This document shows positions 4,032 through 60,600 of a stretch of 64,000 bases of DNA, piece by piece (the first letter of the stretch is position 1; each line of letters starts with the position of its first letter). A program made the position numbers and the translations under genes. Source of the DNA: a virus; UHGV virus genome UHGV-0036582. One strand, written 5' to 3'. Below the pieces are notes generated by a model, which was not told the origin of the DNA, made no database searches, and saw nothing but the letters and a program-made list of their open reading frames with translations.

Positions 4032-4310
4032 TTATTTTAATCTGCTTAATAGCGTTTCGAGATCTTCCTTTGTCATATTAGAGTTCTCATAGATACGCAT
4101 GATTTTCTCACGAGTCTTAGCGGAAGCCCCGACAGAAGATATAACCTTGTCAAAGTCGGCCATTGTCAATTGTTCCAGAATGGTATTTATGACTTCAGCC
4201 TTAGACATTTTGATATTTTTTTCTTTTAGTTTCACTTGAAACTTTCCAAGTTTGTCATTGGCCTTATCAGACAATGCTACCTGACAATAAGTTGTTTTCT
4301 TTTCGCTCAT
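4032..4310 (-). CDS. hypothetical protein
   Basis: 92-aa lysine-rich ORF directly downstream of helicase gene. Confidence 0.4.
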   Translation of the reverse strand: MSEKKTTYCQVALSDKANDKLGKFQVKLKEKNIKMSKAEVINTILEQLTMADFDKVISSVGASAKTREKIMRIYENSNMTKEDLETLLSRLK

Positions 4311-5915: not shown

Positions 5916-5938
5916 TAATAAGTAAGTGATTACTTAGT
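5916..5938. promoter_or_regulatory. dyad TAAGTA/TACTTA motif in divergent promoter region
   Basis: ATAAGTAAGTGATTACTTAG between leftward helicase gene and rightward ParB-like gene; member of a recurrent intergenic motif family. Confidence 0.4.
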
Positions 5939-9128: not shown

Positions 9129-9152
9129 TCGGTCTGGGAGCTTATTTAAAGA

Positions 9153-9207
9153 CCTGCTTCTGTATATATAAATAATAAGTAACTTATTAAATATATACGG
9201 AAGCAGG
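9153..9207. repeat. 55-bp near-perfect palindromic element, copy 1
   Basis: CCTGCTTCTGTATATATAAATAATAAGTAACTTATTAAATATATACGGAAGCAGG, nested inside outer arms GGTCTGGG 9131-9138 / CCCAGACC 9222-9229; second copy at 40508-40562. Confidence 0.7.
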
Positions 9208-9270
9208 CTTAATAAGACATGCCCAGACCTAATTAAACAACCCAGAAAACAAGTTGGTTAGAAAATGCAG

Positions 9271-9286
9271 TAAACAAGTTGTTTTA
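9271..9286. promoter_or_regulatory. palindromic operator-like site TAAACAAGTTGTTTTA upstream of terS
   Basis: AAACAA-G-TTGTTT dyad; imperfect second copy at 9245-9259; further palindrome GAGCGC-ATGGAC-GCGCTC at 9287-9304. Confidence 0.45.
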
Positions 9287-9324
9287 GAGCGCATGGACGC
9301 GCTCTGTGTGTTTTAGAGGGATCT

Positions 9325-12835: not shown

Positions 12836-13723
12836 ATGAATCTGTGGCAAATGCTTTTGGCCCGTCGTGGTCTGATGGATGTCGCTGAAGCGCATGAGCG
12901 TGGAGGCGCTGGCGGTGTAGCTGCTGATAATGAGCAGAGTACACAAGATCCTGACAAACAGGGTGAACAAAAAGAGCAGCCGAAGGGCGATGACGAATAC
13001 GCTGGCATGACTCAGGAAGAGTTACTGGCCGAACTTCGTAAAACCAAGAAAGCTGGTGCTGAACTGCTGAAGGAGAACATGAAGCGCAAAGAGAAAGAGC
13101 GCACATTGGCCGATCAGCTTGCTCAGTACGGTGATATCGATCCGGCTCGTGCTCGCCAGCTTTTAGAAGCTGAACAGGCCGCAGAAAACGCACGTCGTGA
13201 GGCGGAGCAAGCTGAACTGGAGCGTCGTGGTGAGTTCGATGCTGTTAAAAAACAGATGATCGAAGCACACCAGGCAGAGCTGGCACAGCGTGACGAACGT
13301 TATGCAGCACTGGAAAGTGAAAACGCATCACTGAAATCTCAATTAGTCGAGATGACCGTGGGCGCGTCCTTCAGTAACTCTCTCTTCCTACGTGACAAAG
13401 TTCTGATGACCCCGGCAAAAGCCCGCGTGATCTACGGTTCTCATTTTGAAGTGGGTGAAGACGGTAGCGTAGTGGGTTATGACAAACCGGCAGGTCATAA
13501 AGAACGAGCTGTTCTGGTTGACGGTGAAGGTAAGCCGTTGCCGTTTGAATCCGCGATTGAACGCATTGTGCGGGCAGATCCGGAAGCTGACGCATTGATG
13601 CGTAGCGAAGCCAAGCAGGGTGTAGGCTCACATTCCAAATCGACCTACACAATATCCCAACCGAAGAACAAGTCGACTATGGATAAGTTGGCCTCCGGTC
13701 TGGGGAAAATTGGACTTAAGTAA
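12836..13723 (+). CDS. scaffolding protein
   Basis: Charged alpha-helical/coiled-coil rich, between portal and capsid genes. Confidence 0.5.
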   Translation: MNLWQMLLARRGLMDVAEAHERGGAGGVAADNEQSTQDPDKQGEQKEQPKGDDEYAGMTQEELLAELRKTKKAGAELLKENMKRKEKERTLADQLAQYGDIDPARARQLLEAEQAAENARREAEQAELERRGEFDAVKKQMIEAHQAELAQRDERYAALESENASLKSQLVEMTVGASFSNSLFLRDKVLMTPAKARVIYGSHFEVGEDGSVVGYDKPAGHKERAVLVDGEGKPLPFESAIERIVRADPEADALMRSEAKQGVGSHSKSTYTISQPKNKSTMDKLASGLGKIGLK

Positions 13724-31592: not shown

Positions 31593-34500
31593 ATGTGGTA
31601 CAGGGAAGGTACTATCACATTTACACAGGGTAGCAATACTCTGGTTGGGGCAGGGACAGCCTGGAACGTAACAGCTAATGGTGTGTTGCCGGGGATGATC
31701 GTCATTGGCCCCGACAACAAGCTGTATGAGATCAAGCGCGTAACCAGTGATACGAACATTGTTCTCTCAGAACCTTATACCGGCGAAACTCAGTCTGAAG
31801 TTCCGTGCCGAATCATTACGACCTATGAAGGCGACTTAACACAGTTTAGCGCGCGCTTTACTGCACTAATGTCGCGTATGTCGGCTGATTCCAAGTCCAT
31901 GCGCAGTTGGTTGACTGCTCTGGATGAGGTGACAATCGAGCGTGAAGACGGTACAGAAGTGACCGTTAAGCCGCTAATGCAGATCGTCAACGAGCACAAC
32001 GAAAACGTTGAGTGGTATAAAAATAACACTGACGCGATTAATGCTGCTGGCGACAAAGCTCGTGAGGCGGCGGCCAGTGCTGCCGCAGCAGCAGAAAGCG
32101 CCAATACCGCTGGAGAAAAAGCCTCTCAAGCGTCTCAAAGTGCATCCGCTGCGGCATCTTCACAAAGTGCTGCAAGTGCGAGCGCAACTGCTGCGAAAAA
32201 ATCTGAAACGAACGCACAAGCCGCAAAAGAAGCGGCAGCAGAATCAGCATCTGTAGCGTCGGCCAAAGCATCGGAGGCAGCAACATCTGCGTCCAGTGCC
32301 TCTGCATCTAAGGATGCAGCCAAAGTATCAGAGACTAACGCTTCATCGAGCGCAAACGCGGCAGCATCATCGGCAACAGAAGCTGCAAATTCGTCTAAGG
32401 CAGCAAAAACGTCAGAGACAAACGCAAAAGCATCTGAAACGGCCGCCGGGCAGAGTGCAAAGTCTGCAAACAGTTCGAAATCTGCGGCAGAAGCCTCAGC
32501 AAGCGCAGCCTCAGCAAGCGCGGATAGTGCTTCATCAAGTGCAACAGCGGCAGGAAAATCTGCGGAAAGTGCATCGTCATCAGCGACAACAGCTACCACA
32601 AAAGCGACAGAGGCGACGAGTCAGGCTACAGCTGCTAAAAATTCAGCATCGGCAGCAAAAGCCTCTGAAACAAATGCAAAGACTTCAGAAGACAATGCTG
32701 CTTCCTCTAAGGCGGCAGCTGCTGAATCTGCAAGTTCTGCGTCTGCATCAGCTACCTCGGCATCCGCTTCAAAAGATGAGGCGACTAAACAGGCGTCAGC
32801 AGCGAAGGGCAGTGCCACGACGGCATCCACAAAGGCAACAGAGGCGGCAGGCAGTGCGACGGCTGCATCTCAGAGCAAAACTGCTGCCGAATCTGCTGCG
32901 ACCCGTGCAGAAGCAGCCGCAGATCGTGCTGAAGAGATTGCCGGTGCAGTTGCGATGGAAGACGCAACCCTTACAACTAAAGGTGTTGTGAAACTTAGTA
33001 GTGCGACAGATAGCACCAGTGAATCGCTGGCTGCAACGCCAAAGGCAGTTAAAGCAGCCAATGACAATGCGAATAGTAGGGTGCCATCTAACCGAAAAAT
33101 TAACGGGAAAGCACTGACTGCGGATATCACATTAACGCCGAAAGATATTGGCACTTTAAATTCAGTAACGATGTCTTTCTCTGGCGGGGCTGGGTGGTTC
33201 AAACTGGCTACGGTTACCATGCCACAAGCGAGTTCCATCGTTTACATTGCATTGATTGGTGGCGCTGGTTACAACGTCGGCTCCCCACAGCAGGCAGGCA
33301 TTTCAGAACTGGTTTTACGAGCAGGCAATGGAAACCCCAAAGGGATTACCGGAGCTTTGTGGAAGCGTACAGCCGTCGGATTAACGAATTTCGCCTGGAT
33401 CAACACATCCGGCGATAAATATGATATTTACGTTGAGATTGGCAATTATGCGACGAGTGTAAATATCCATTGGGACTGTACTGCAAATGCGTCAGTTTCT
33501 GTTTATACCTCGCCAACATATTCAGCGAGTAAGCCTTCCGGCGTTACCGATGGCGTTGTTTATACGGTGTATAGCTCACACCAGAAACCTACACCATCAG
33601 ATATTGGAGCACTGCCAACAACGGGAGGGACTATTTCAGGTCCGTTGGCTGTTACTGGTGGGATCACCGGAACATTAAATGGCAATGCAAGTACCGCTAC
33701 GAAATTGCAGACTGCAAGAACTATCGGCGGCGTGGCCTTCGATGGCTCTGCGAACATAAATTTGCCTGGTGTAAACACGGCAGGTAATCAGAGCACTACT
33801 GGTAATGCCGCAACCGCTACAAAACTTCAAACGGCAAGAACGATTGGTGGCGTTTCATTTAACGGAACTGCCAACATCGACTTGCCCGGAGTTAACAAAA
33901 CTGGCAACCAAAGCACCACAGGTAATGCTGCTACAGCTACTAAATTGCAGACTGCAAGAACCATCGGTGGTGTTAGCTTTGATGGCACTGCGAATATTAA
34001 TTTGCCAGGTGTAAATACGGCAGGTAATCAGAGCACTACAGGTAACGCGGCCACAGCGACCAAGTTGCAAACTGCTAGAACTATTAACGGGGTGTCGTTT
34101 AACGGCTCTGCGAATATTTCAATACCAACAATTACGTCCAGAGGACGCGTTACTGCGCTCACCGGTACAACACAAGGTGCTGCGACTGGATTGCAGATGT
34201 ACGAGGCATATAACAATGGCTACCCTTCGACTTACGGGAATGTGCTTCATCTTAAGGGCGCAACGGCCGTTGGTGAAGGTGAGTTGTTCATAGGTTGGAG
34301 CGGTACAAGTGGCGCTCATGCACCTGTACATGTACGTTCGCGACGAGATACGGATACATCCAGTTGGTCTGAATGGGCGCAAGTTTATACGTCCAAAGAC
34401 TCAATTCCAGGTGTTAATGCCACCGGTAATCAGAACACTACTGGCAACGCGGCAACCGCCACCAAATTGCAGACAGCGAGAAGAATTAACAATGTGGCTT

Positions 34501-35471
34501 TTGACGGCACGAAAGATATTACTCTAACGCCTGGTAATATCGGCGCTGCTGCTTCGTCTCAGGCATGGCTGAATACTGGCGATTCAGGACAATCATTATC
34601 CACATCGTCATTTATTACGCTGCTGCAAAATAACGGCGCATTCAATCAGCGTACATGGATTGCTCGCTGTTCGTGGGCTTATGCTAATAACGCCTCAATA
34701 CCGGATAGCGAAACAAAATGCGGCACTATTCCGCTTGCTGGCGCACTGATTGAAATAACCAGCTTTGGCATGACTAACTACACAATTAGGATCACCACCG
34801 CAACGACTACCAGCGTTTCCGGTGCAAAAGTAAACGCCGAATTTATTTACGTTTACAATGGGGATGGTTATTCGCCAGGCTGGCGCAGGCAGTACAATAC
34901 TAAAAACCTGCCGACGCCACTTGAGATAGGAACTTACAGCAAATCGGAGATTGACAATTTAAATAGGAATTTTCTCACATCGTCAAGACTTGAAGCTGGC
35001 TCGTTAGATGCAAACTTCCAGACGTTAACTTGTTATTATTTGCAAATATTCGACATTCAGACAACAACCGATAGTCCTAACATGTTCGTAAGTCCGATTG
35101 CTGGCTACAACATGGTTTTTCGTTCGACTTCATCCCGTCGATACAAGACGGATATCGAGTCTTTAGAGAACAAGTACGCGGACGAGCTGTTGAAACTTCG
35201 TCCTGTATGGTATCGCTCGACTTGTGAAAGGGACAGAAAGGACTGGGGACATTATGGCCTTATTGCAGAAGAAGTCGGAGAGATAGCACCGCAATATGTT
35301 CACTGGCGTCCTCTTACAGACGAAGATGATCCAAGTATAGCGTCTGATAATGGGATGGTTGCTGAAGGCGTGATGTATGACCGTCTGGTTGTTCCACTCA
35401 TTCACCATATTCAAAAACTGACAAAAAGGGTTGAGGAGCTTGAAGCGAAGTTAAATTCACCTGAAGAATAA
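31593..35471 (+). CDS. tail fibre protein with C-terminal S74-type intramolecular chaperone
   Basis: Ala/Ser-rich low-complexity region; five tandem ~40-aa repeats GNQSTTGNAATATKLQTARTIGGVSFDGTANI; C-terminal RRYKTDIESLENKYADELLKLRPVWYR...GLIAEEV motif block. Confidence 0.8.
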   Translation: MWYREGTITFTQGSNTLVGAGTAWNVTANGVLPGMIVIGPDNKLYEIKRVTSDTNIVLSEPYTGETQSEVPCRIITTYEGDLTQFSARFTALMSRMSADSKSMRSWLTALDEVTIEREDGTEVTVKPLMQIVNEHNENVEWYKNNTDAINAAGDKAREAAASAAAAAESANTAGEKASQASQSASAAASSQSAASASATAAKKSETNAQAAKEAAAESASVASAKASEAATSASSASASKDAAKVSETNASSSANAAASSATEAANSSKAAKTSETNAKASETAAGQSAKSANSSKSAAEASASAASASADSASSSATAAGKSAESASSSATTATTKATEATSQATAAKNSASAAKASETNAKTSEDNAASSKAAAAESASSASASATSASASKDEATKQASAAKGSATTASTKATEAAGSATAASQSKTAAESAATRAEAAADRAEEIAGAVAMEDATLTTKGVVKLSSATDSTSESLAATPKAVKAANDNANSRVPSNRKINGKALTADITLTPKDIGTLNSVTMSFSGGAGWFKLATVTMPQASSIVYIALIGGAGYNVGSPQQAGISELVLRAGNGNPKGITGALWKRTAVGLTNFAWINTSGDKYDIYVEIGNYATSVNIHWDCTANASVSVYTSPTYSASKPSGVTDGVVYTVYSSHQKPTPSDIGALPTTGGTISGPLAVTGGITGTLNGNASTATKLQTARTIGGVAFDGSANINLPGVNTAGNQSTTGNAATATKLQTARTIGGVSFNGTANIDLPGVNKTGNQSTTGNAATATKLQTARTIGGVSFDGTANINLPGVNTAGNQSTTGNAATATKLQTARTINGVSFNGSANISIPTITSRGRVTALTGTTQGAATGLQMYEAYNNGYPSTYGNVLHLKGATAVGEGELFIGWSGTSGAHAPVHVRSRRDTDTSSWSEWAQVYTSKDSIPGVNATGNQNTTGNAATATKLQTARRINNVAFDGTKDITLTPGNIGAAASSQAWLNTGDSGQSLSTSSFITLLQNNGAFNQRTWIARCSWAYANNASIPDSETKCGTIPLAGALIEITSFGMTNYTIRITTATTTSVSGAKVNAEFIYVYNGDGYSPGWRRQYNTKNLPTPLEIGTYSKSEIDNLNRNFLTSSRLEAGSLDANFQTLTCYYLQIFDIQTTTDSPNMFVSPIAGYNMVFRSTSSRRYKTDIESLENKYADELLKLRPVWYRSTCERDRKDWGHYGLIAEEVGEIAPQYVHWRPLTDEDDPSIASDNGMVAEGVMYDRLVVPLIHHIQKLTKRVEELEAKLNSPEE

Positions 35472-38421: not shown

Positions 38422-38499
38422 ATGTTTCAGTTTCTTTATCAACCTACTAATTAACCTTTACACCGCAGCCGTAGGCATTTAGGCTATATCACATATAAG

Positions 38500-38513
38500 A
38501 AAACAAGTTGTTT
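38500..38513. promoter_or_regulatory. palindromic operator-like site AAAACAAGTTGTTT upstream of parA
   Basis: Same 13-bp dyad as at 9273 and 41433. Confidence 0.45.
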
Positions 38514-38548
38514 CAGACGATAATTATATACGCAAAGGGAACTCTCCA

Positions 38549-39576: not shown

Positions 39577-39580
39577 AAAT

Positions 39581-39613
39581 CATGCATTGGCGTAATGTAC
39601 GCGCCAATGCATG
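39581..39613. repeat. perfect 12-bp inverted repeat CATGCATTGGCG / CGCCAATGCATG with 9-nt loop
   Basis: Between convergent par operon and GIY-YIG gene; no T-tract; possible factor-dependent terminator or centromere-like site. Confidence 0.5.
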
Positions 39614-39628
39614 AGTACAATGTCAGTT

Positions 39629-40396
39629 TTATGCCGCGCTAACACTATGTTCAGTCCTAACCACTCCAACCTTCACAAAAGGGCTACCGTAGCTTGGTGG
39701 CTTCTTGATTAATTTGCCAACATACAGTTTTCTAATATGCTCATCGGCTATTCTGCCAACAAATTCATAACGTTTTGTGTCGGGGCCAAGAGCTATATCC
39801 CTTGTAAAGTACTGCTGAGAACCGGCTTTGACCCAGCATTCAATCTGATAAACTTCCATTATCAGCCCACCATATGTAGCGTAGGCATATTTGAGATTCT
39901 CGTCTCTTGGAACCTTTGCCCATACGCCACGCGTAGCTTCATATAATGCCAGAGCGGACATTCCTGACTTGTAGGTGCTGTTTAGCAGGAAGGCAAGACC
40001 GGCGTGCTCAGGAGCAATTTCAGTTTCCTCTTGCAGCACTAAGTGATGGTAGGCGTCCAGTGATATTCTGCCCATCATGGAACCACTTCCTCGTACCTTA
40101 TTCGTAAGCTCTCCGACCCCCATAAGGTCGATGCATGTCGCCTCAACAAGTTTGGCTGTGGTTTCATCCATACCATGACGAAGTATATCTATGCCTAATT
40201 TTTTATTAGCCAAAAGTTCTTTGATCCGCATGGATTTGGGAGAGTCATCGGGATACTTGATGTGATCGAGACAACGAGTCGATTTGCCTTTTCCTATGTA
40301 AAACGGTCTTTTCATCTTGTCTTCTGTATCATAGAGACAGTAAACATAGTATTTAGCCTTATCCAATGATCTCGCGTATACCGATAAATCGTCCAT
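39629..40396 (-). CDS. GIY-YIG family endonuclease (homing-endonuclease-like)
   Basis: N-terminus YVYCLYD-(10 aa)-FYIGKGKSTRCLDH matches GIY...YIG...R..H spacing. Confidence 0.6.
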   Translation of the reverse strand: MDDLSVYARSLDKAKYYVYCLYDTEDKMKRPFYIGKGKSTRCLDHIKYPDDSPKSMRIKELLANKKLGIDILRHGMDETTAKLVEATCIDLMGVGELTNKVRGSGSMMGRISLDAYHHLVLQEETEIAPEHAGLAFLLNSTYKSGMSALALYEATRGVWAKVPRDENLKYAYATYGGLIMEVYQIECWVKAGSQQYFTRDIALGPDTKRYEFVGRIADEHIRKLYVGKLIKKPPSYGSPFVKVGVVRTEHSVSAA

Positions 40397-40507
40397 TATT
40401 GCATCTCTTAGCTACTGACTAATGCGTTCTATTTTACACATAAGTTTTTAATCAATTTAACAGGCTCAAAGTGTAGAGCTTCTGGGCGTCTAAGACGACA
40501 AGTTATG

Positions 40508-40562
40508 CCTGCTTCTGTATATATTTAATAAGTTACTTATTATTTATATATACAGAAGCAGG
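40508..40562. repeat. 55-bp near-perfect palindromic element, copy 2 (inverted relative to copy 1)
   Basis: Reverse complement matches 9153-9207 at 54 of 55 positions. Confidence 0.7.
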
Positions 40563-40671
40563 TCTTTTAAAAAGACACCCACCAGAACAACTCCCTTCCG
40601 TTTCCACTTCCAAAAACTGTCACCAGTCGCTATCATCCGCTCATTGTGATAAGTAAGTAACTACCTACCAG

Positions 40672-41421: not shown

Positions 41422-41431
41422 CTAATACTAG

Positions 41432-41445
41432 AAAACAATTTGTTT
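41432..41445. promoter_or_regulatory. palindromic operator-like site AAAACAATTTGTTT upstream of DnaB-like gene
   Basis: AAACAA-T-TTGTTT dyad 20 nt upstream of ATG 41465. Confidence 0.45.
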
Positions 41446-41464
41446 AAAAAACAAAGGAAAGCAC

Positions 41465-47918: not shown

Positions 47919-48130
47919 TCGTATTAAGTAAACGGGAGAAAGAAACGCTTCATGAAATAAGTAAGTGGCCGGAGTTCCCTGAGTACTGGAAGCCTAAAAC
48001 GCGAGCTAAGTTAGAGCGTTTAGGGTTGGTTGCAAACGTTTCTGAAACGTGGTGCTCGGCCAACTACCAGTTAACTGATAAAGGGAAATTATTGCTACAG
48101 CAATTAGTAGAATCAGGAGCCTTTAAATGA
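47915..48130 (+). CDS. hypothetical small protein
   Basis: 71-aa ORF coupled to ligase gene. Confidence 0.35.
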   Translation: MIVLSKREKETLHEISKWPEFPEYWKPKTRAKLERLGLVANVSETWCSANYQLTDKGKLLLQQLVESGAFK

Positions 48131-48275
48131 TTCCATACATCTCATTAGCTTTTATGGCTGGCTTCCTTATCGGCTTCGGCATCTGTCGTGATTTGATTAA
48201 GCAGGAACTTAAAACCAAAACACTGTGCATCGGGAAGCGTGTGTATCGGGTAGTTCATGAAACAAAGGTGAGAAA

Positions 48276-48566: not shown

Positions 48567-48801
48567 AAACATCTCGATAAGTATTTACTTACTTATCTTT
48601 TATGTATAAGATGACTTTGTTTTCGTTGAGACGCGACTGTTTGAACTTAAATACAAGTGCAAACGAAGAAGTCTATCTGGCAGTAGCCTAATAAGCCAAA
48701 CACCAGCGAGGTCAGTTTCCAGCCTCGTTACCGAAATGGGACACACTGAGCGAGTGTGATTGCAGAACGCAGGAGGGAACATTCATGTTCCCTCCGATGA
48801 A

Positions 48802-48880
48802 GTAACAGAATGGGCGGTTGGTATATTTTCAACTCCATATGACTCCCGGATTCTTAGCCACTGACCGCCCATCCTGTTAC
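48802..48880. repeat. long-range inverted repeat (17-bp arms, 45-nt spacer) in tRNA leader
   Basis: GTAACAGAATGGGCGGT vs ACCGCCCATCCTGTTAC (16 of 17 complementary); enclosed by further hairpins (GGAGGGAACAT / ATGTTCCCTCC at 48771-48794). Confidence 0.55.
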
Positions 48881-48956
48881 GTCATTTTGTTCAATTATGT
48901 CGTTTATACTGGGTTAAAAAGCGGCGACGTAGCCCGGCTGGTATGGTTAGCCAGCA

Positions 48957-49079: not shown

Positions 49080-49342
49080 AGACGGGATTGTTGTGTAGGT
49101 TTAACCACTGTTGCCATTGGTGCCTGTTTTCACAACAAATGATTCCATACATCACATTGTATAAATTACAAAGTAGGTGCTGTCCTCAGAAACATCATCT
49201 ACTTAAAGATTTTGCCTTCTATTGAGCGAAGTCGAAAACGTCTGGCACTAACGGAAAGTGCAAGTAGCGGTGCGTTTCCTGGCAGAAACTAACACCGCCG
49301 CGATTGGCACTGTTGAGTAATAAATACTGGCAGTGCTGAATT

Positions 49343-49417
49343 GATGGTGTAGCTCAGCGGTAGAGCAGTTGGCTGTTAACCAACTGGTCGGTGGTTCGAA
49401 TCCACCCACCATCGCCA
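49343..49417 (+). tRNA. tRNA-Asn (anticodon GTT)
   Basis: Cloverleaf folded by hand: acceptor GATGGTG/CACCATC, D-stem GCTC/GAGC, anticodon stem GTTGG/CCAAC with loop CTGTTAA, T-arm GGTGG-TTCGAAT-CCACC, 3' GCCA. Confidence 0.85.
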
Positions 49418-49422
49418 ATTTA

Positions 49423-49509
49423 GGGGAGTTAGTCCGTAGGGGCAGCGGGGTAGACTGTAAATCTACTGTCATTGCGACTCGGGTGGTTCGACTCCATCAC
49501 TCCCCACCA
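49423..49509 (+). tRNA. tRNA-Tyr (anticodon GTA), long variable arm
   Basis: Acceptor GGGGAGT/ACTCCCC, anticodon stem GTAGA/TCTAC with loop CTGTAAA, long variable arm, T-arm GGTGG-TTCGACT-CCATC, 3' ACCA; D-arm pairing irregular. Confidence 0.6.
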
Positions 49510-49513
49510 AATT

Positions 49514-49589
49514 GCCGGTTTAGCTCAGTTGGTAGAGCGCCTGCCTTGTAAGCAGGATGTCAGCGGTTCGAGTCCGCTAACCGGCACCA
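49514..49589 (+). tRNA. tRNA-Thr (anticodon TGT)
   Basis: Acceptor GCCGGTT/AACCGGC, D-stem GCTC/GAGC, anticodon stem CCTGC/GCAGG with loop CTTGTAA, T-arm AGCGG-TTCGAGT-CCGCT, 3' ACCA. Confidence 0.85.
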
Positions 49590-51805: not shown

Positions 51806-51854
51806 CCCACCAAACTCACTCCCGTTTCCCTTAAAATTCAAAAAACAACGTCAA

Positions 51855-51887
51855 AATGATTCCATACCTACTATGTATGGAATCATT
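51855..51887. promoter_or_regulatory. 12-bp perfect inverted repeat upstream of recombinase gene
   Basis: AATGATTCCATA-cctactatg-TATGGAATCATT; left arm is the third copy of the AAATGATTCCATAC repeat. Confidence 0.5.
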
Positions 51888-53934: not shown

Positions 53935-54032
53935 CCCCTCTTCTCCCTGCGCGAATGGCTTAGTTCCCTGTTCGCGCAGTGCTACATTAAACATACTAGT
54001 AAATAATTTGTTTTCATAACAAAGGATTAGCC

Positions 54033-57669: not shown

Positions 57670-60600
57670 CTTCTCACTTGGGGAGTCGGCTCTAAAAGCA
57701 GAAAACGCGGTGAAGATTGCCAGAGAAGCTGGCTACACCGCTGTAATTTCAGCAGATAGCATGAATATTGCGAGCGTTATTCCACTACAACGTGCCGCTG
57801 GTGACGACATGGCGGTTATTTGTGGTGTGAAACTAAACATTGTTGATGATCCCACATACGAGCACCGGGCTAAACTTGCTAAAGAATCTATGAGATGTAT
57901 GGAATCATTAGAGCGGGGACGTAACTACTCGTTTACCGCTCTAATTAAAAATGAGCAAGGATATCGCGACATCTGCGAACTAATGACGGTGGCCAACACA
58001 CGAGAACAGTTCTACTTTGTACCGCGTCTCTCGCTCGAACAGTTGGTTTCTACATATGCCAAAGGCAACATCATCCTGCTCACTTCCGACATCGGTAGCG
58101 TGTTCCAACGCAACGATTTTGCAAAAATCATAAGCTCACTGATTACAGCGGGCGGGAAAGACAACTTCTATAGCGTGGTTTATCCGCACCCTACCCCATT
58201 CTACGACCAGATTAACGTCCGAGCGATGAAAGTAGCCAGCGCACTGAAAATAGAGCCAGTAGCGTTCTATCCCGCTTATTACGAATCGATCGACGATGCA
58301 GACATTAAAGACATTGCGCACATGGTTACGAACAACATAAAAATCGACCAGCCGCATCGTCTGCGTATCCCCCACCAGCGAGATAACGCCATCAATGGTC
58401 GTCGCCATCTCCTTGAGGCGCTTAAAGCCTTCTCCGTTCGCATGGATGTGCCGGTAACAGCTGCAATGGCCTCAACAACGCAGGACTCCATTATCGATGC
58501 CTGCACATGGCGCTGGCATGAATTGCCACCAGCACTGCCCAAGATGGCAGACGACGAACCTGCAACGCTGATGAAACTGGCTGTTGCAGGGCTGCGTAAA
58601 CGTCTTACCACAAAAGAGTTTGGATACACACCACCTGCTTCTGAGAACAGGGTTTATGTTGAGCGGCTAAAGTACGAAATGGACACGCTGACTCGCCTGG
58701 GATTCTGTGGTTACTTCCTGATGGTACGCGATCTGATGAATCACAGCCGTGAAACTGGCATTCCTGTCGGGCCTGGTCGTGGTTCCTCTGCCGGTTCTCT
58801 GGTGGCGTGGTGCATAGGCATAACCAACGTCGACCCAATCCGTCACGGTCTTCTGTTTGAGCGTTTCATCAACCCTGAGCGTCTCGACTTGCCGGATGCG
58901 GACTTGGACTTCAGCCAGGCACGTCGCCATGAGGTGATCGAGTATCTGAATGAACGCTACGGCGAAGATTACGTTGCAGGCATTCCGAACTTCACCTACC
59001 TGGGCGCAGCCTCTGCACTACGTGACACCGCTCGTATTTATGGTGTGGAGTCCGCAGATATGGCGGTATCAAAAGAACTGAAGAACGTCGAGGATGATAG
59101 CCTTCCATTGGAAGAGCTGCGCGAACAACTGGCAAGTCTCGACAAATACGCAACAAAATATCCTGATGCATTCAATGCAGCCTGCAAGTTACAAAGCCTT
59201 ATGCGTGGCTTTGGTAGACATGCGGCAGGGATGATCGTAGCAGGTGTTCCTCTGACAGAACGTACACCGGTTGAACGCCGTGGTGACGCGCGTTGTATCG
59301 CATTTGACAAGCGTTACTGCGAGGCTATGGGCCTAATTAAGCTGGACGTACTTGGTCTGGCAACTCTCGATTTGCTCGATAGTGCAAAACGCTACATAAA
59401 AGAGAACACAGGTGAAGATATCAATCTTGATGCCATTTCTCTTGAAGATCGCAAGGTGCTGGATGGTTTTGCTGCTGGGTACACTCAAGGTGTTTTCCAG
59501 CTTGAATCAGGCCCAATGCGCAAGCTGCTTAAAGATTTAGGTGGTGGAATTGAGCCAATGAGCTTTAAAACGGTTGTTGCTACGACTGCGCTCTTCCGGC
59601 CGGGTCCAATTCAGTCAGGCATGTTGGATGACTATGTTTCTGTAGCCAAAGGCTTTATGACGCCGGAATCATTACACCCCGTTCTTGATGAACTTACCGC
59701 AGAAACAAATGGCGTGATTCTCTATCAGGAACAGACGATGAACGCGACTCGATTGCTTGCTGGCTTCACAATGGCTGAAGCTGACGGCGTTCGTAAAGCG
59801 ATCGGCAAAAAAGACATGGAAAAAATGAAGAGCATGGGCGAGAAGTTCATCGTTCAGGCTCAAGCTGGCTGGATAGACGTTGAGCTGGAAGATGGCACTA
59901 CACAGCGCATTCACCGTGCGGAACATTTTAAATGCGAAGACGGAACTCTGAAAACTGTCGAAGAGGCACTTGAGTACGGCGCAAAACTACCTATAAACGC
60001 AGTACGCGTTACAGCGTCACATCCAGGGCTATCAGAGATGAAAGCGAAGGAGATCTGGACCGCATTCGAAAAGAATGGTGCCTACCAGTTCAACAAATCA
60101 CACTCTGTTGCTTACTCCTTAATCAGTTATCAATCTATGTGGTTGAAAACTCATTATCCCGCGGAGTTCTTCGCTGCTGCTCTCACTATTCTTGGCGAAG
60201 ATAAACACCAGGGGCTGGTTAAAGATGCGCTGACCTATGGTATTCGCGTATTGCCACCAGACGTTAACGTGTCATCTAACCGAATCGAGATCCGCACGCT
60301 TGAAGATGGCAGCCAGGTGCTGTATGCGCCCTTCTCTGCTGTGAAAGGGTGTTCTGAGAATGGCTGCCAAGCCATCATGAGAGCGCGAGAAAAAGTTGGC
60401 GGCAAATTCGAGTCACTGGCGCAATTCGAAGAAGCTGTCGAGAAACGTGCCTGTAATAGTCGAGTGCGCGAATCACTGCAAAAAGTAGGTGCGTTTGCAT
60501 CCATCGAGCCAGGTAGTCTGCCAGCAACTGATCCAGAGCGTCTCCGCGACCAGGCTGAATTGATGGGAAACCTTGTCATAGACGCAGTTAAAGCCTCACG

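Follow-up and report, generated by a model that had tools for sequence, protein, structure and literature searches.

In phage lambda, the tI/sib region contains a terminator within a longer RNase III stem whose 3′ outer segment is transcribed only on read-through. Repetitive extragenic palindromes and bacterial interspersed mosaic elements (REP/BIME) can stabilise upstream mRNA and attenuate transcription, and the herpes simplex oriS/oriL system comprises three palindromes per genome, with an A+T-rich centre and flanking inverted short repeats, one of them beside replication genes. Here we analyse a nested palindromic element in a 64,000-nucleotide stretch of the UHGV virus genome UHGV-0036582 (the whole stretch is called the window). 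The window is part of an SSU5-like phage-plasmid, with 96–99% identity to the Escherichia phages CMS-2020a, PhiR41_1 and Cyrano and ∼80% identity to Klebsiella phages and Salmonella phage SSU5; a 241-bp query round copy 1 of the element is 100% identical to Escherichia coli plasmid NZ_CP022167.1. An earlier note on this DNA had described two copies of the element. Both are present (c1 and c2), but a third one (c3), outside the window, had been missed.

On balance, we favour an interpretation in which c1–c3 are boundary hairpins that act in RNA between the gene modules of SSU5-like phage-plasmids, with c2, and probably c3, working as intrinsic terminators. The c1 copy is intergenic and lies between an 88-amino-acid (aa) gene on its left, which closes an operon encoding two ParB-N-domain proteins and ABC-type ATPases, and terS/terL on its right. 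The c2 copy, also intergenic, separates a partition and cargo region on its left from the lytic replication module on its right. In the window the former holds ParA, a 119-aa protein and, on the opposite strand, a GIY-YIG gene; the latter starts with a 246-aa protein of unknown function, followed by a DnaB-like helicase and then a primase. As previously stated, both copies precede rightward operons, the centre of c1 lying 145 nt upstream of the terS ATG (9325) and that of c2 lying 146 nt upstream of the ATG (40681) of the first replication-module gene. Pfam, PHROGs and PDB sequence searches gave no functional hint for the small flanking proteins (246, 88, 119 and 76 aa).

The 55-mer CCTGCTTCTGTATATATAAATAATAAGTAACTTATTAAATATATACGGAAGCAGG (9153–9207, + strand) recurs at 40508–40562 on the − strand with one mismatch, as the earlier note had reported, and no such match arose in dinucleotide-preserving shuffles (0/100). 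Gapless extension of the pair yields a 72-nt inverted repeat (9141–9212 versus 40503–40574, 94% complementary). The outer inverted repeat claimed for c1 is also there (GGTCTGGG at 9131–9138 and CCCAGACC at 9222–9229), and the resulting ∼100-nt unit has a predicted fold of −50.6 kcal/mol as RNA (z score −9.6) and −27.9 kcal/mol as DNA (z −8.9). This is the strongest 110-nt fold in the window, though its GC content is only 34%, and a direct palindrome scan placed c1 and c2 among only five long local palindromes in 64 kb. The stem base, CCTGC/GCAGG, is GC-rich, and all three copies fold far better than shuffles (c2, z −7.3; c3, z −4.95). The outer repeat had been noted for copy 1 only; c2 carries a degenerate one of its own, TTCTGGGCG, with its right-hand partner CACCAGAAC at 40580–40588. 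When these outer arms are included (40462–40605), c2 folds at −46.1 kcal/mol (z −6.5). Most c2 variants, including those with an otherwise unrelated left flank, keep a TCTGG-type motif ∼20 nt to the left of the inner palindrome. The features of the two copies in the window are as follows.

9131–9229, + strand: whole nested c1 hairpin unit before terS (outer stem, spacers and inner palindrome), from the RNA fold.
9131–9140, + strand: c1 outer-left repeat GGTCTGGGAG, kept in E. coli, Salmonella, Klebsiella and Yersinia variants, ∼12 nt from the inner palindrome.
9153–9207, + strand: c1 inner 55-bp near-palindrome, with 14–17-bp arms CCTGCTTCTGTATATA / TATATACGGAAGCAGG and a centre of ∼90% A+T.
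9222–9229, + strand: c1 outer-right repeat CCCAGACC; a second CCCAGA lies at 9241–9246.
9285–9306, + strand, with a T-run to 9316: leader terminator hairpin (GAGCGC..GCGCTC; GAGCGCATGGACGCGCTC) between c1 and the terS start.
40480–40488, + strand: degenerate c2 outer-left repeat TTCTGGGCG.
40508–40562, + strand: c2 inner 55-bp palindrome, its core flipped relative to most relatives.
40563–40568, + strand: T-run TCTTTT directly 3′ of the c2 hairpin, a candidate U-tract of an intrinsic terminator.
40576–40588, + strand: c2 outer-right repeat region ACACCCACCAGAAC, pairing with 40480–40489 in the predicted read-through RNA.
40608–40636, + strand: putative sigma-70-like promoter 3′ of c2 (TTCCAA, 17 nt, TATCAT), recognised by eye.

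The third copy was located in PhiR41_1 (PV340561) at 13436–13486, between an adenine methyltransferase gene and a 76-aa open reading frame (ORF). Its surroundings (13349–13557) show the same design, with two GTCTGG-type repeats to the left of the inner hairpin, two CCCAGAC to its right and a T-run behind it. The three copies are spaced 30–46 kb apart on a 108-kb circle.

A two-arm pattern scan of IMG/VR detected at least 120 loci, ∼35 of them with flanks not found in the window. The 129 pattern-found instances fell into three positional classes: c1, before terS (51); c2, before the replication module (42); and c3, after the methylase gene (36). This first pattern required near-consensus arms, which makes arm conservation circular, and loci were re-collected via the adjacent proteins. 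In the protein-anchored set the element, whose absence from all relatives had been proposed as part of the grounds for dismissing it, was present before terS in 74/74 loci (c1), before the 246-aa gene in 78/78 (c2) and after the methyltransferase gene in 68/78 (c3). The distance from the c2 centre to the start codon was 142–149 nt in 77 of the 78 loci. When one genome per species was scanned (185,579 species), only nine loci were found, each of them a c1, c2 or c3 on a ∼100-kb plasmid contig, from Kluyvera (two genomes with three copies each), Buttiauxella, Yersinia pestis and one metagenome-assembled contig labelled Bacillota. Among 5,426 complete E. coli genomes there were 404 places in 259 genomes, one to three per genome and none chromosomal.

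This distribution bears on the small mobile palindrome raised in the earlier note, which might be like a miniature inverted-repeat transposable element or REP-like, and on a possible role as the target of a GIY-YIG homing endonuclease. Such an element would be a repeated palindrome, as this one is, and c2 has a mosaic left edge, joined to at least eight different left flanks, where the window carries a GIY-YIG gene. That gene does adjoin c2 as reported (39629–40396, − strand; Pfam PF22945, E 5.5e-7). However, the proposed searches of relatives and host genomes returned copies at c1, c2 and c3 only, and the two palindrome-only E. coli matches are SSU5-derived c2 fragments in hybrid plasmids. 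Since every instance sits at one of three syntenic sites on SSU5-like replicons, none of them chromosomal, the element cannot be considered mobile. Nor is it tied to the GIY-YIG gene, because Cyrano, SSU5, CMS-2020a SCU-175 and Moellerella lack that gene and keep c2 intact. We consider this alternative effectively refuted. Similarity between the window and Cyrano, SSU5 and CMS-2020a SCU-175 starts at the left edge of c2 (40498–40508), which makes c2 the right border of a variable cargo region.

Within that region, the GIY-YIG gene (LEM-3-like; 39629–40396, − strand) occurs in some close relatives only and is missing from others. A perfect palindrome with 13-bp arms, TCATGCATTGGCG...CGCCAATGCATGA (39580–39614), separates the 3′ ends of the parA operon and the convergent GIY-YIG gene, and is likely a bidirectional terminator.

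On the + strand, at least five T residues occur in the 9 nt after the c2 hairpin in 73/78 loci, and a T-run follows the c3 hairpin in 56/68. The substitutions in the c2 stem are strand-biased too. In its 14-bp lower stem, the cells that are not Watson–Crick pairs comprise 98 G·U pairs when read on the + strand, 4 on the − strand and 2 mismatches. Position 5 of this stem, for instance, is C-G in 51 loci, U·G in 26 and U-A in 1, and position 9 is U·G in 65, C-G in 5, U-A in 5 and C·A in 3. The minimum free energy of the whole element showed no consistent bias between plus and minus strands; only the position-wise wobble count at c2 is informative.

Published transcriptomes of E. coli LF82, which carries the closely related plasmid prophage Cyrano (PMC9928086 S1 Table), allowed expression to be compared on the two sides of the element. 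CYRAN_28–30 (the ParA gene, a 119-aa gene and a cargo gene) are all co-directional. CYRAN_30, upstream of c2 on the same strand, is expressed at log2 5.7–10.4, and CYRAN_31, 193 bp further on and across c2, at log2 2.3–4.2 in all ten samples (PMC9928086 S1 Table). At gene-level resolution the drop across c2 is seen in 10/10 samples and reaches ∼2^7.8 (∼200-fold). A gene-level counterpart of the fall in RNA-seq coverage anticipated in the earlier note is visible at c2 in Cyrano, and it is small at c1: where CYRAN_123, just before c1, is above background, it stands at 4.2–6.6 versus 3.2–5.6 for terS, a partial drop of 1–3.5-fold. At c3 the data are uninformative because the upstream gene is at background. 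The same note had proposed a bidirectional terminator or insulator; termination or insulation is supported, most clearly at c2, where T-run, G·U bias and RNA-seq drop coincide, but in a unidirectional form and with no T-run at c1.

The design is conserved well beyond close relatives. The c1 of Y. pestis pMT1 is identical to that of SSU5, and Moellerella plasmid pW1-b has a nested hairpin in all three orthologous intergenic regions with different arms (CCTAGCTCCCATA/TATGGGAGCTAGG at c2 and c3, GTTCCCAT/ATGGGAAC at c1) and outer repeats CCGCAG/CTGCGG. Two IMG/VR lineages (L410 and L411) use arms GCCTTGCTCCCATA/TATGGGAGCAAGGC and outer repeats CCGCAGTGT/ACACTGCGG. In Acinetobacter plasmid pDETAB1, whose TerL is 59% identical, two units were found, one near terS (c1′) and one before the helicase module (c2′), each with 3–4 helix tiers and outer repeats YTTGGG/CCCAAR in two copies per side; no third site was found in the 100 of 103.7 kb scanned. 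A pattern scan for arms of the Moellerella or L410 type gave chance matches only in its loose version and one site in its strict version. One divergent lineage (IMG/VR contigs L403–L409 and L412) has the c3 palindrome cut to its right half, ATATATAGGAGCCAGGC, ∼130–200 nt after the methyltransferase gene; there, an unrelated canonical terminator, AGAGATTCAGGCAC-TTAC-GTGCCTTAATCTCT followed by GTTTTT, adjoins the half c3 and is an apparent functional replacement.

Covariation was assessed in a fixed-register alignment of the 14-bp lower stem across the E. coli group, Moellerella, L410, L411 and Acinetobacter. Both sides have changed in 11/14 pairs, and 94.1% of the lower-stem cells are paired, versus 76.5% in shuffles (0/500) and 27–51% in slid controls. 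These compensatory changes across lineages indicate that selection keeps the dyad symmetry. The centre of the palindrome is ∼90% A+T and site-specific; its length changes by slippage, varying by 1–6 bp, and by ∼40 bp in Moellerella c2. A centre of variable length is tolerated by a hairpin, not by a rigid dimer on B-DNA, which favours a hairpin.

Under the interpretation that we favour, the three nested hairpins would act as module borders through + strand transcripts. The GC-rich base and the U-tract would cause Rho-independent, unidirectional termination at c2 and, in the core enterobacterial lineages, probably at c3 as well. The c2 hairpin would block transcription of the lysogenically expressed partition and toxin–antitoxin genes from entering the lytic replication genes, which would then use their own promoter ∼45 nt beyond c2; c2 and c3 would likewise protect other lytic genes from upstream transcription in lysogens. 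The candidate promoter at 40608–40636 is an inference from its sequence and is missing from the output of a stricter consensus scan; SSU5 keeps it as TTCCAA-17-TATGAT. Lacking a U-tract, c1 can be at most a weak terminator, and it may be a weak barrier or, more likely, a hairpin that stabilises or processes 3′ ends before the late-operon leader. The outer arms lie beyond the U-tract and hence can pair only in read-through RNA, forming an imperfect duplex of ∼40 bp. By analogy with lambda tI/sib, this duplex suggests RNase III processing in lytic growth. We infer the exact termination point, the roles of c1 and of the outer arms, and any processing, whereas the anatomy, fixed positions, conservation, covariation, T-run, strand bias and gene-level RNA-seq drop at c2 are observed.

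Several observations weigh against this interpretation. A T-run follows c1 in 0/26 unique variants (in the window, the tail after the c1 stem is CTTAATAAG), and it is also missing at Acinetobacter c1′ and c2′, at L410/L411 c3, and at c1 and c3 of Moellerella, which has one at c2. Intrinsic termination therefore cannot be the function common to all members. The G·U strand bias is strong at c2 only (44:12 with 29 mismatches at c1; 29:29 with 18 at c3), and a palindrome would show the same covariation if it were a DNA hairpin or a symmetric site co-evolving with the protein that binds it. The RNA-seq data are gene-level and come from Cyrano, a relative ∼97% identical round c2 and a different plasmid from that of the window, where the gene before c2 is on the opposite strand and leaves no co-directional gene directly upstream to terminate. 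Finally, a plain terminator needs neither conserved outer repeats, one or two copies per side, nor lineage-specific arms common to three sites whose centres differ, as in Moellerella.

These last features led us to consider that the three hairpins form a coordinated cis-regulatory set, recognised by a trans-acting factor peculiar to this family (a nuclease, or a protein that binds RNA or DNA hairpins), a proposal that we hold as tentative, with perhaps one chance in several of being right. Such a factor would toggle the sites between a 'closed' state (termination, insulation) and an 'open' state (read-through, processing or origin firing) at the transition from lysogeny to lysis. It would explain why the same arms and outer repeats are found at three sites despite drifting centres, and also the conservation, from Enterobacterales to Acinetobacter, of members that lack a U-tract.

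Alternatively, the copies may be DNA-level sites bound by a phage or host protein, that is, lytic origins of the herpes simplex oriS type, with inverted binding sites on either side of an A+T-rich, hairpin-capable unwinding centre, or loading or silencing sites for the two ParB-N-domain proteins. The core is ∼90% A+T between GC-rich arms and is flanked by one or two short outer repeats per side (TCTGGG/CCCAGA; YTTGGG/CCCAAR in Acinetobacter; CCGCAG/CTGCGG in Moellerella), c2 directly precedes the 246-aa unknown, the DnaB-like helicase and the primase in all lineages, and the ParB_N proteins are conserved at the head of the operon ending at c1. The 30–46-kb spacing on the circle and the lineage-specific arms common to three sites with differing centres would fit as well. 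An A+T-rich region between repeated motifs is compatible with origin-type anatomy, but no initiator-like domain was found among the neighbouring proteins, and the plasmid replicon (RepA/RepB/RepM) is located elsewhere. GC skew, inspected for an origin signal, tracks gene orientation only. Moreover, a G·U bias confined to one strand and a conserved U-tract at c2 are unexpected for duplex DNA, the distance between the arms varies, cruciform extrusion is made less favourable by bulges and internal loops, and the gene conversion described below accounts for the common arm variants. We regard a DNA-level function as rather improbable. Overall, the boundary-hairpin interpretation leaves some limited room for a trans-acting factor or for action at the DNA level, for example as a lytic origin or as a loading site of the ParB type.

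A further alternative is that RNA processing or regulated termination is the common function. Here the read-through nested hairpin would be a target of RNase III or of a phage factor and would uncouple the stabilities of the module mRNAs, in the manner of lambda sib retroregulation and of the T7 intercistronic sites, with the U-tract of c2 and c3 a lineage- and site-specific addition. Nested helices of ∼40 bp with small symmetric internal loops are present at every site and in every lineage, with or without a U-tract; the right outer arm of c2 and c3 lies beyond the U-tract; and the outer stems covary between sites and lineages (TCTGGG/CCCAGA, TTTGGG/CCCAAA, CTTGGG/CCCAAG, CCGCAG/CTGCGG). In the B6 and MB6 samples, CYRAN_123 is 4–8-fold above CYRAN_122, which could reflect a 3′ fragment protected by the hairpin; it could, however, come from an internal promoter. 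Rfam contains no matching family, the element showing only sub-threshold resemblance to generic long hairpins. This proposal overlaps with the one that we favour and does not exclude it; as the common function, we judge processing to have about the same low probability as a DNA-level site.

The copies of one genome appear to evolve in concert. Derived arm variants are common to several sites in one genome (for example, CGAAAG at c1 and c3). The Klebsiella-type c3 carries the two arms of c1, swapped and inverted, with the resulting stem mismatches, and the left flank of c1 in the E. coli lineage is similar to the right flank of c2 in inverse orientation. Arm variants common to different sites, at times in swapped order, point to gene conversion or template switching between and within palindromes. 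Acting in either orientation, such events would keep the copies of one genome near-identical and would account for the flipped c2 core of the window. The inverted orientation of the two copies, which the earlier note described, holds for the window but is peculiar to its genome. The c2 core runs in the same direction as c1 in most close relatives; in the window, the central ∼21 bp of c2 are inverted with arms and flanks unchanged, a like state being found in 3/78 other c2 loci.

The 72-nt inverted repeat with 94% identity, together with the signs of recombination between copies, could also suggest that the inverted pair drives inversion of the 31-kb morphogenesis segment between c1 and c2. Nevertheless, terS and the helicase module are co-oriented in the complete genomes of PhiR41_1, SSU5, Cyrano, the Klebsiella phages, Moellerella and Acinetobacter, and the cores are direct rather than inverted repeats in most relatives, so that segment inversion seems very improbable to us.

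A position 145 nt before terS would also suit a recognition site for terminase packaging (pac or cos) at c1, and the linear records of SSU5 (JQ965645) and Cyrano (OV696614) both start and end within the right arm of c1, with starts 1 nt apart. However, the Cyrano record is derived from the circular plasmid pLF82, its start was apparently set to match that of SSU5, and we found no terminus determination in the paper deriving it. Many IMG/VR contigs likewise end ∼35–250 nt from one of the three copies, as expected of a repeated palindrome. The record cuts are thus not evidence for a physical genome end at c1, and this candidate was set aside. In addition, the near-identical c2 and c3 lie 30–46 kb from terS, so c1 is not a single terminase-adjacent site, and Acinetobacter has another gene between c1′ and terS. 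A packaging site at c1 is, in our estimation, hardly more plausible than segment inversion.

Two other candidates were rejected. A protelomerase target of the N15 telRL type is at odds with the deposition of relatives as circular and with three copies per genome; no search was aimed at a protelomerase gene. A LexA box was considered since the arm CTGTATATA resembles an SOS half-site. It was dropped, as the partner half-site lies ∼40 bp off and CTG is replaced by CCG in many variants. A promoter scan detected no sigma-70 promoter within the palindrome.

The terS leader behind c1 holds two operator-like GAAAACAAnTTGTT palindromes and its own terminator hairpin, which is conserved in SSU5, pMT1 and Klebsiella. 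A leader terminator directly before terS suggests that antitermination or attenuation controls the late operon. The operator-like motif ('motif B') is found at 129–145, 4283–4299, 9245–9258, 9270–9286, 38499–38515, 41431–41447 and 53999–54015, before terS (two copies), parA, the helicase gene and others, with 16 matches versus 5.4 expected. It probably binds a global regulator, either a repressor or an activator. A 20-bp palindrome ('motif A', ATAAGTAAGTACTTACTTAT-like) occurs at window positions 5918, 12717, 24710, 31530, 40647, 45218, 48577, 51463, 56138 and 61733, ∼20–120 nt before + strand start codons, and the apex of the big hairpin (TAAGTNACTTA) resembles a shortened version of it. Related motifs precede genes in Acinetobacter and Aeromonas relatives, and the Acinetobacter plasmid encodes a sigma-70-family factor; motif A may be a phage-specific promoter or an element of 5′ untranslated regions.

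Elsewhere in the window, three tandem tRNA genes lie at 49343–49586 (Rfam bit scores 75.5, 39.7 and 76.5), with a separate inverted repeat nearby at 48797–48885 (22-nt arms, 45-nt loop). A 20–22-nt repeat, AAATGATTCCATACATC(T/A)CATT, is found in direct and inverted orientation at 48125–48146, 49137–49158, 51854–51887 and 57890–57909, one of them forming a palindrome with 13-bp arms. Tandem 120-bp repeats (69–79% identity) occupy 33681–34117 within a tail-fibre-like ORF of 1292 aa (31593–35471).

SSU5-like phage-plasmids include pHCM2 of Salmonella Typhi, pMT1 of Y. pestis and common ∼110-kb plasmids of Klebsiella and E. coli, some with extended-spectrum beta-lactamase genes. They carry constitutive maintenance genes directly upstream of lytic genes in the same direction, and a strong conserved boundary element would explain how the lytic modules stay silent in the prophage. 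The mosaic junction at the left edge of c2 marks a harmless place for the insertion of cargo genes, c1–c3 offer precise targets for engineering or curing such plasmids, and the repeated palindromes account for the way assemblies of this family keep breaking and for where its records start. If a dedicated factor does read the hairpins, it would give a new handle on the lysis–lysogeny switch of phage-plasmids, essentially uncharacterised in this group. We found no description of the element in the full-text literature on SSU5, pHCM2, pMT1 and phage-plasmids. Terminators and insulating hairpins are ordinary; the nested, concertedly evolving design at three sites, kept throughout a widespread family of plasmid prophages, is unusual and appears undocumented in the literature searched.

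Compared with the herpes simplex origins, the element has the same number of copies, an A+T-rich centre, inverted repeats and one copy (c2) beside replication genes, but its U-tract, strand-specific wobbles and transcript drop point to a function at the RNA level. Like REP/BIME, it consists of intergenic imperfect palindromes between co-directional genes with homogenised copies. Unlike them, it has only three copies, restricted to fixed syntenic sites in one phage-plasmid family and not present in host chromosomes, its units are much longer and it has no associated transposase of the RAYT type (REP-associated tyrosine transposase). With intrinsic terminators, c2 and mostly c3 share a GC-rich stem base followed by a U-tract, a location after co-directional genes in relatives, substitutions that keep the stem and, at c2 of Cyrano, a gene-level fall in expression in vivo. 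The element is nonetheless larger (its 17-bp lower stem is topped by an A+T-rich part and accompanied by outer arms, 100–135 nt in total), is present in three near-identical copies at fixed module borders and lacks the U-tract at c1 and at the Acinetobacter sites. Lambda tI/sib has one site, not three, and no sequence similarity to the element; the two are alike in architecture, with an inner terminator hairpin inside outer complementary arms that, in the predicted folds, pair in the read-through RNA.

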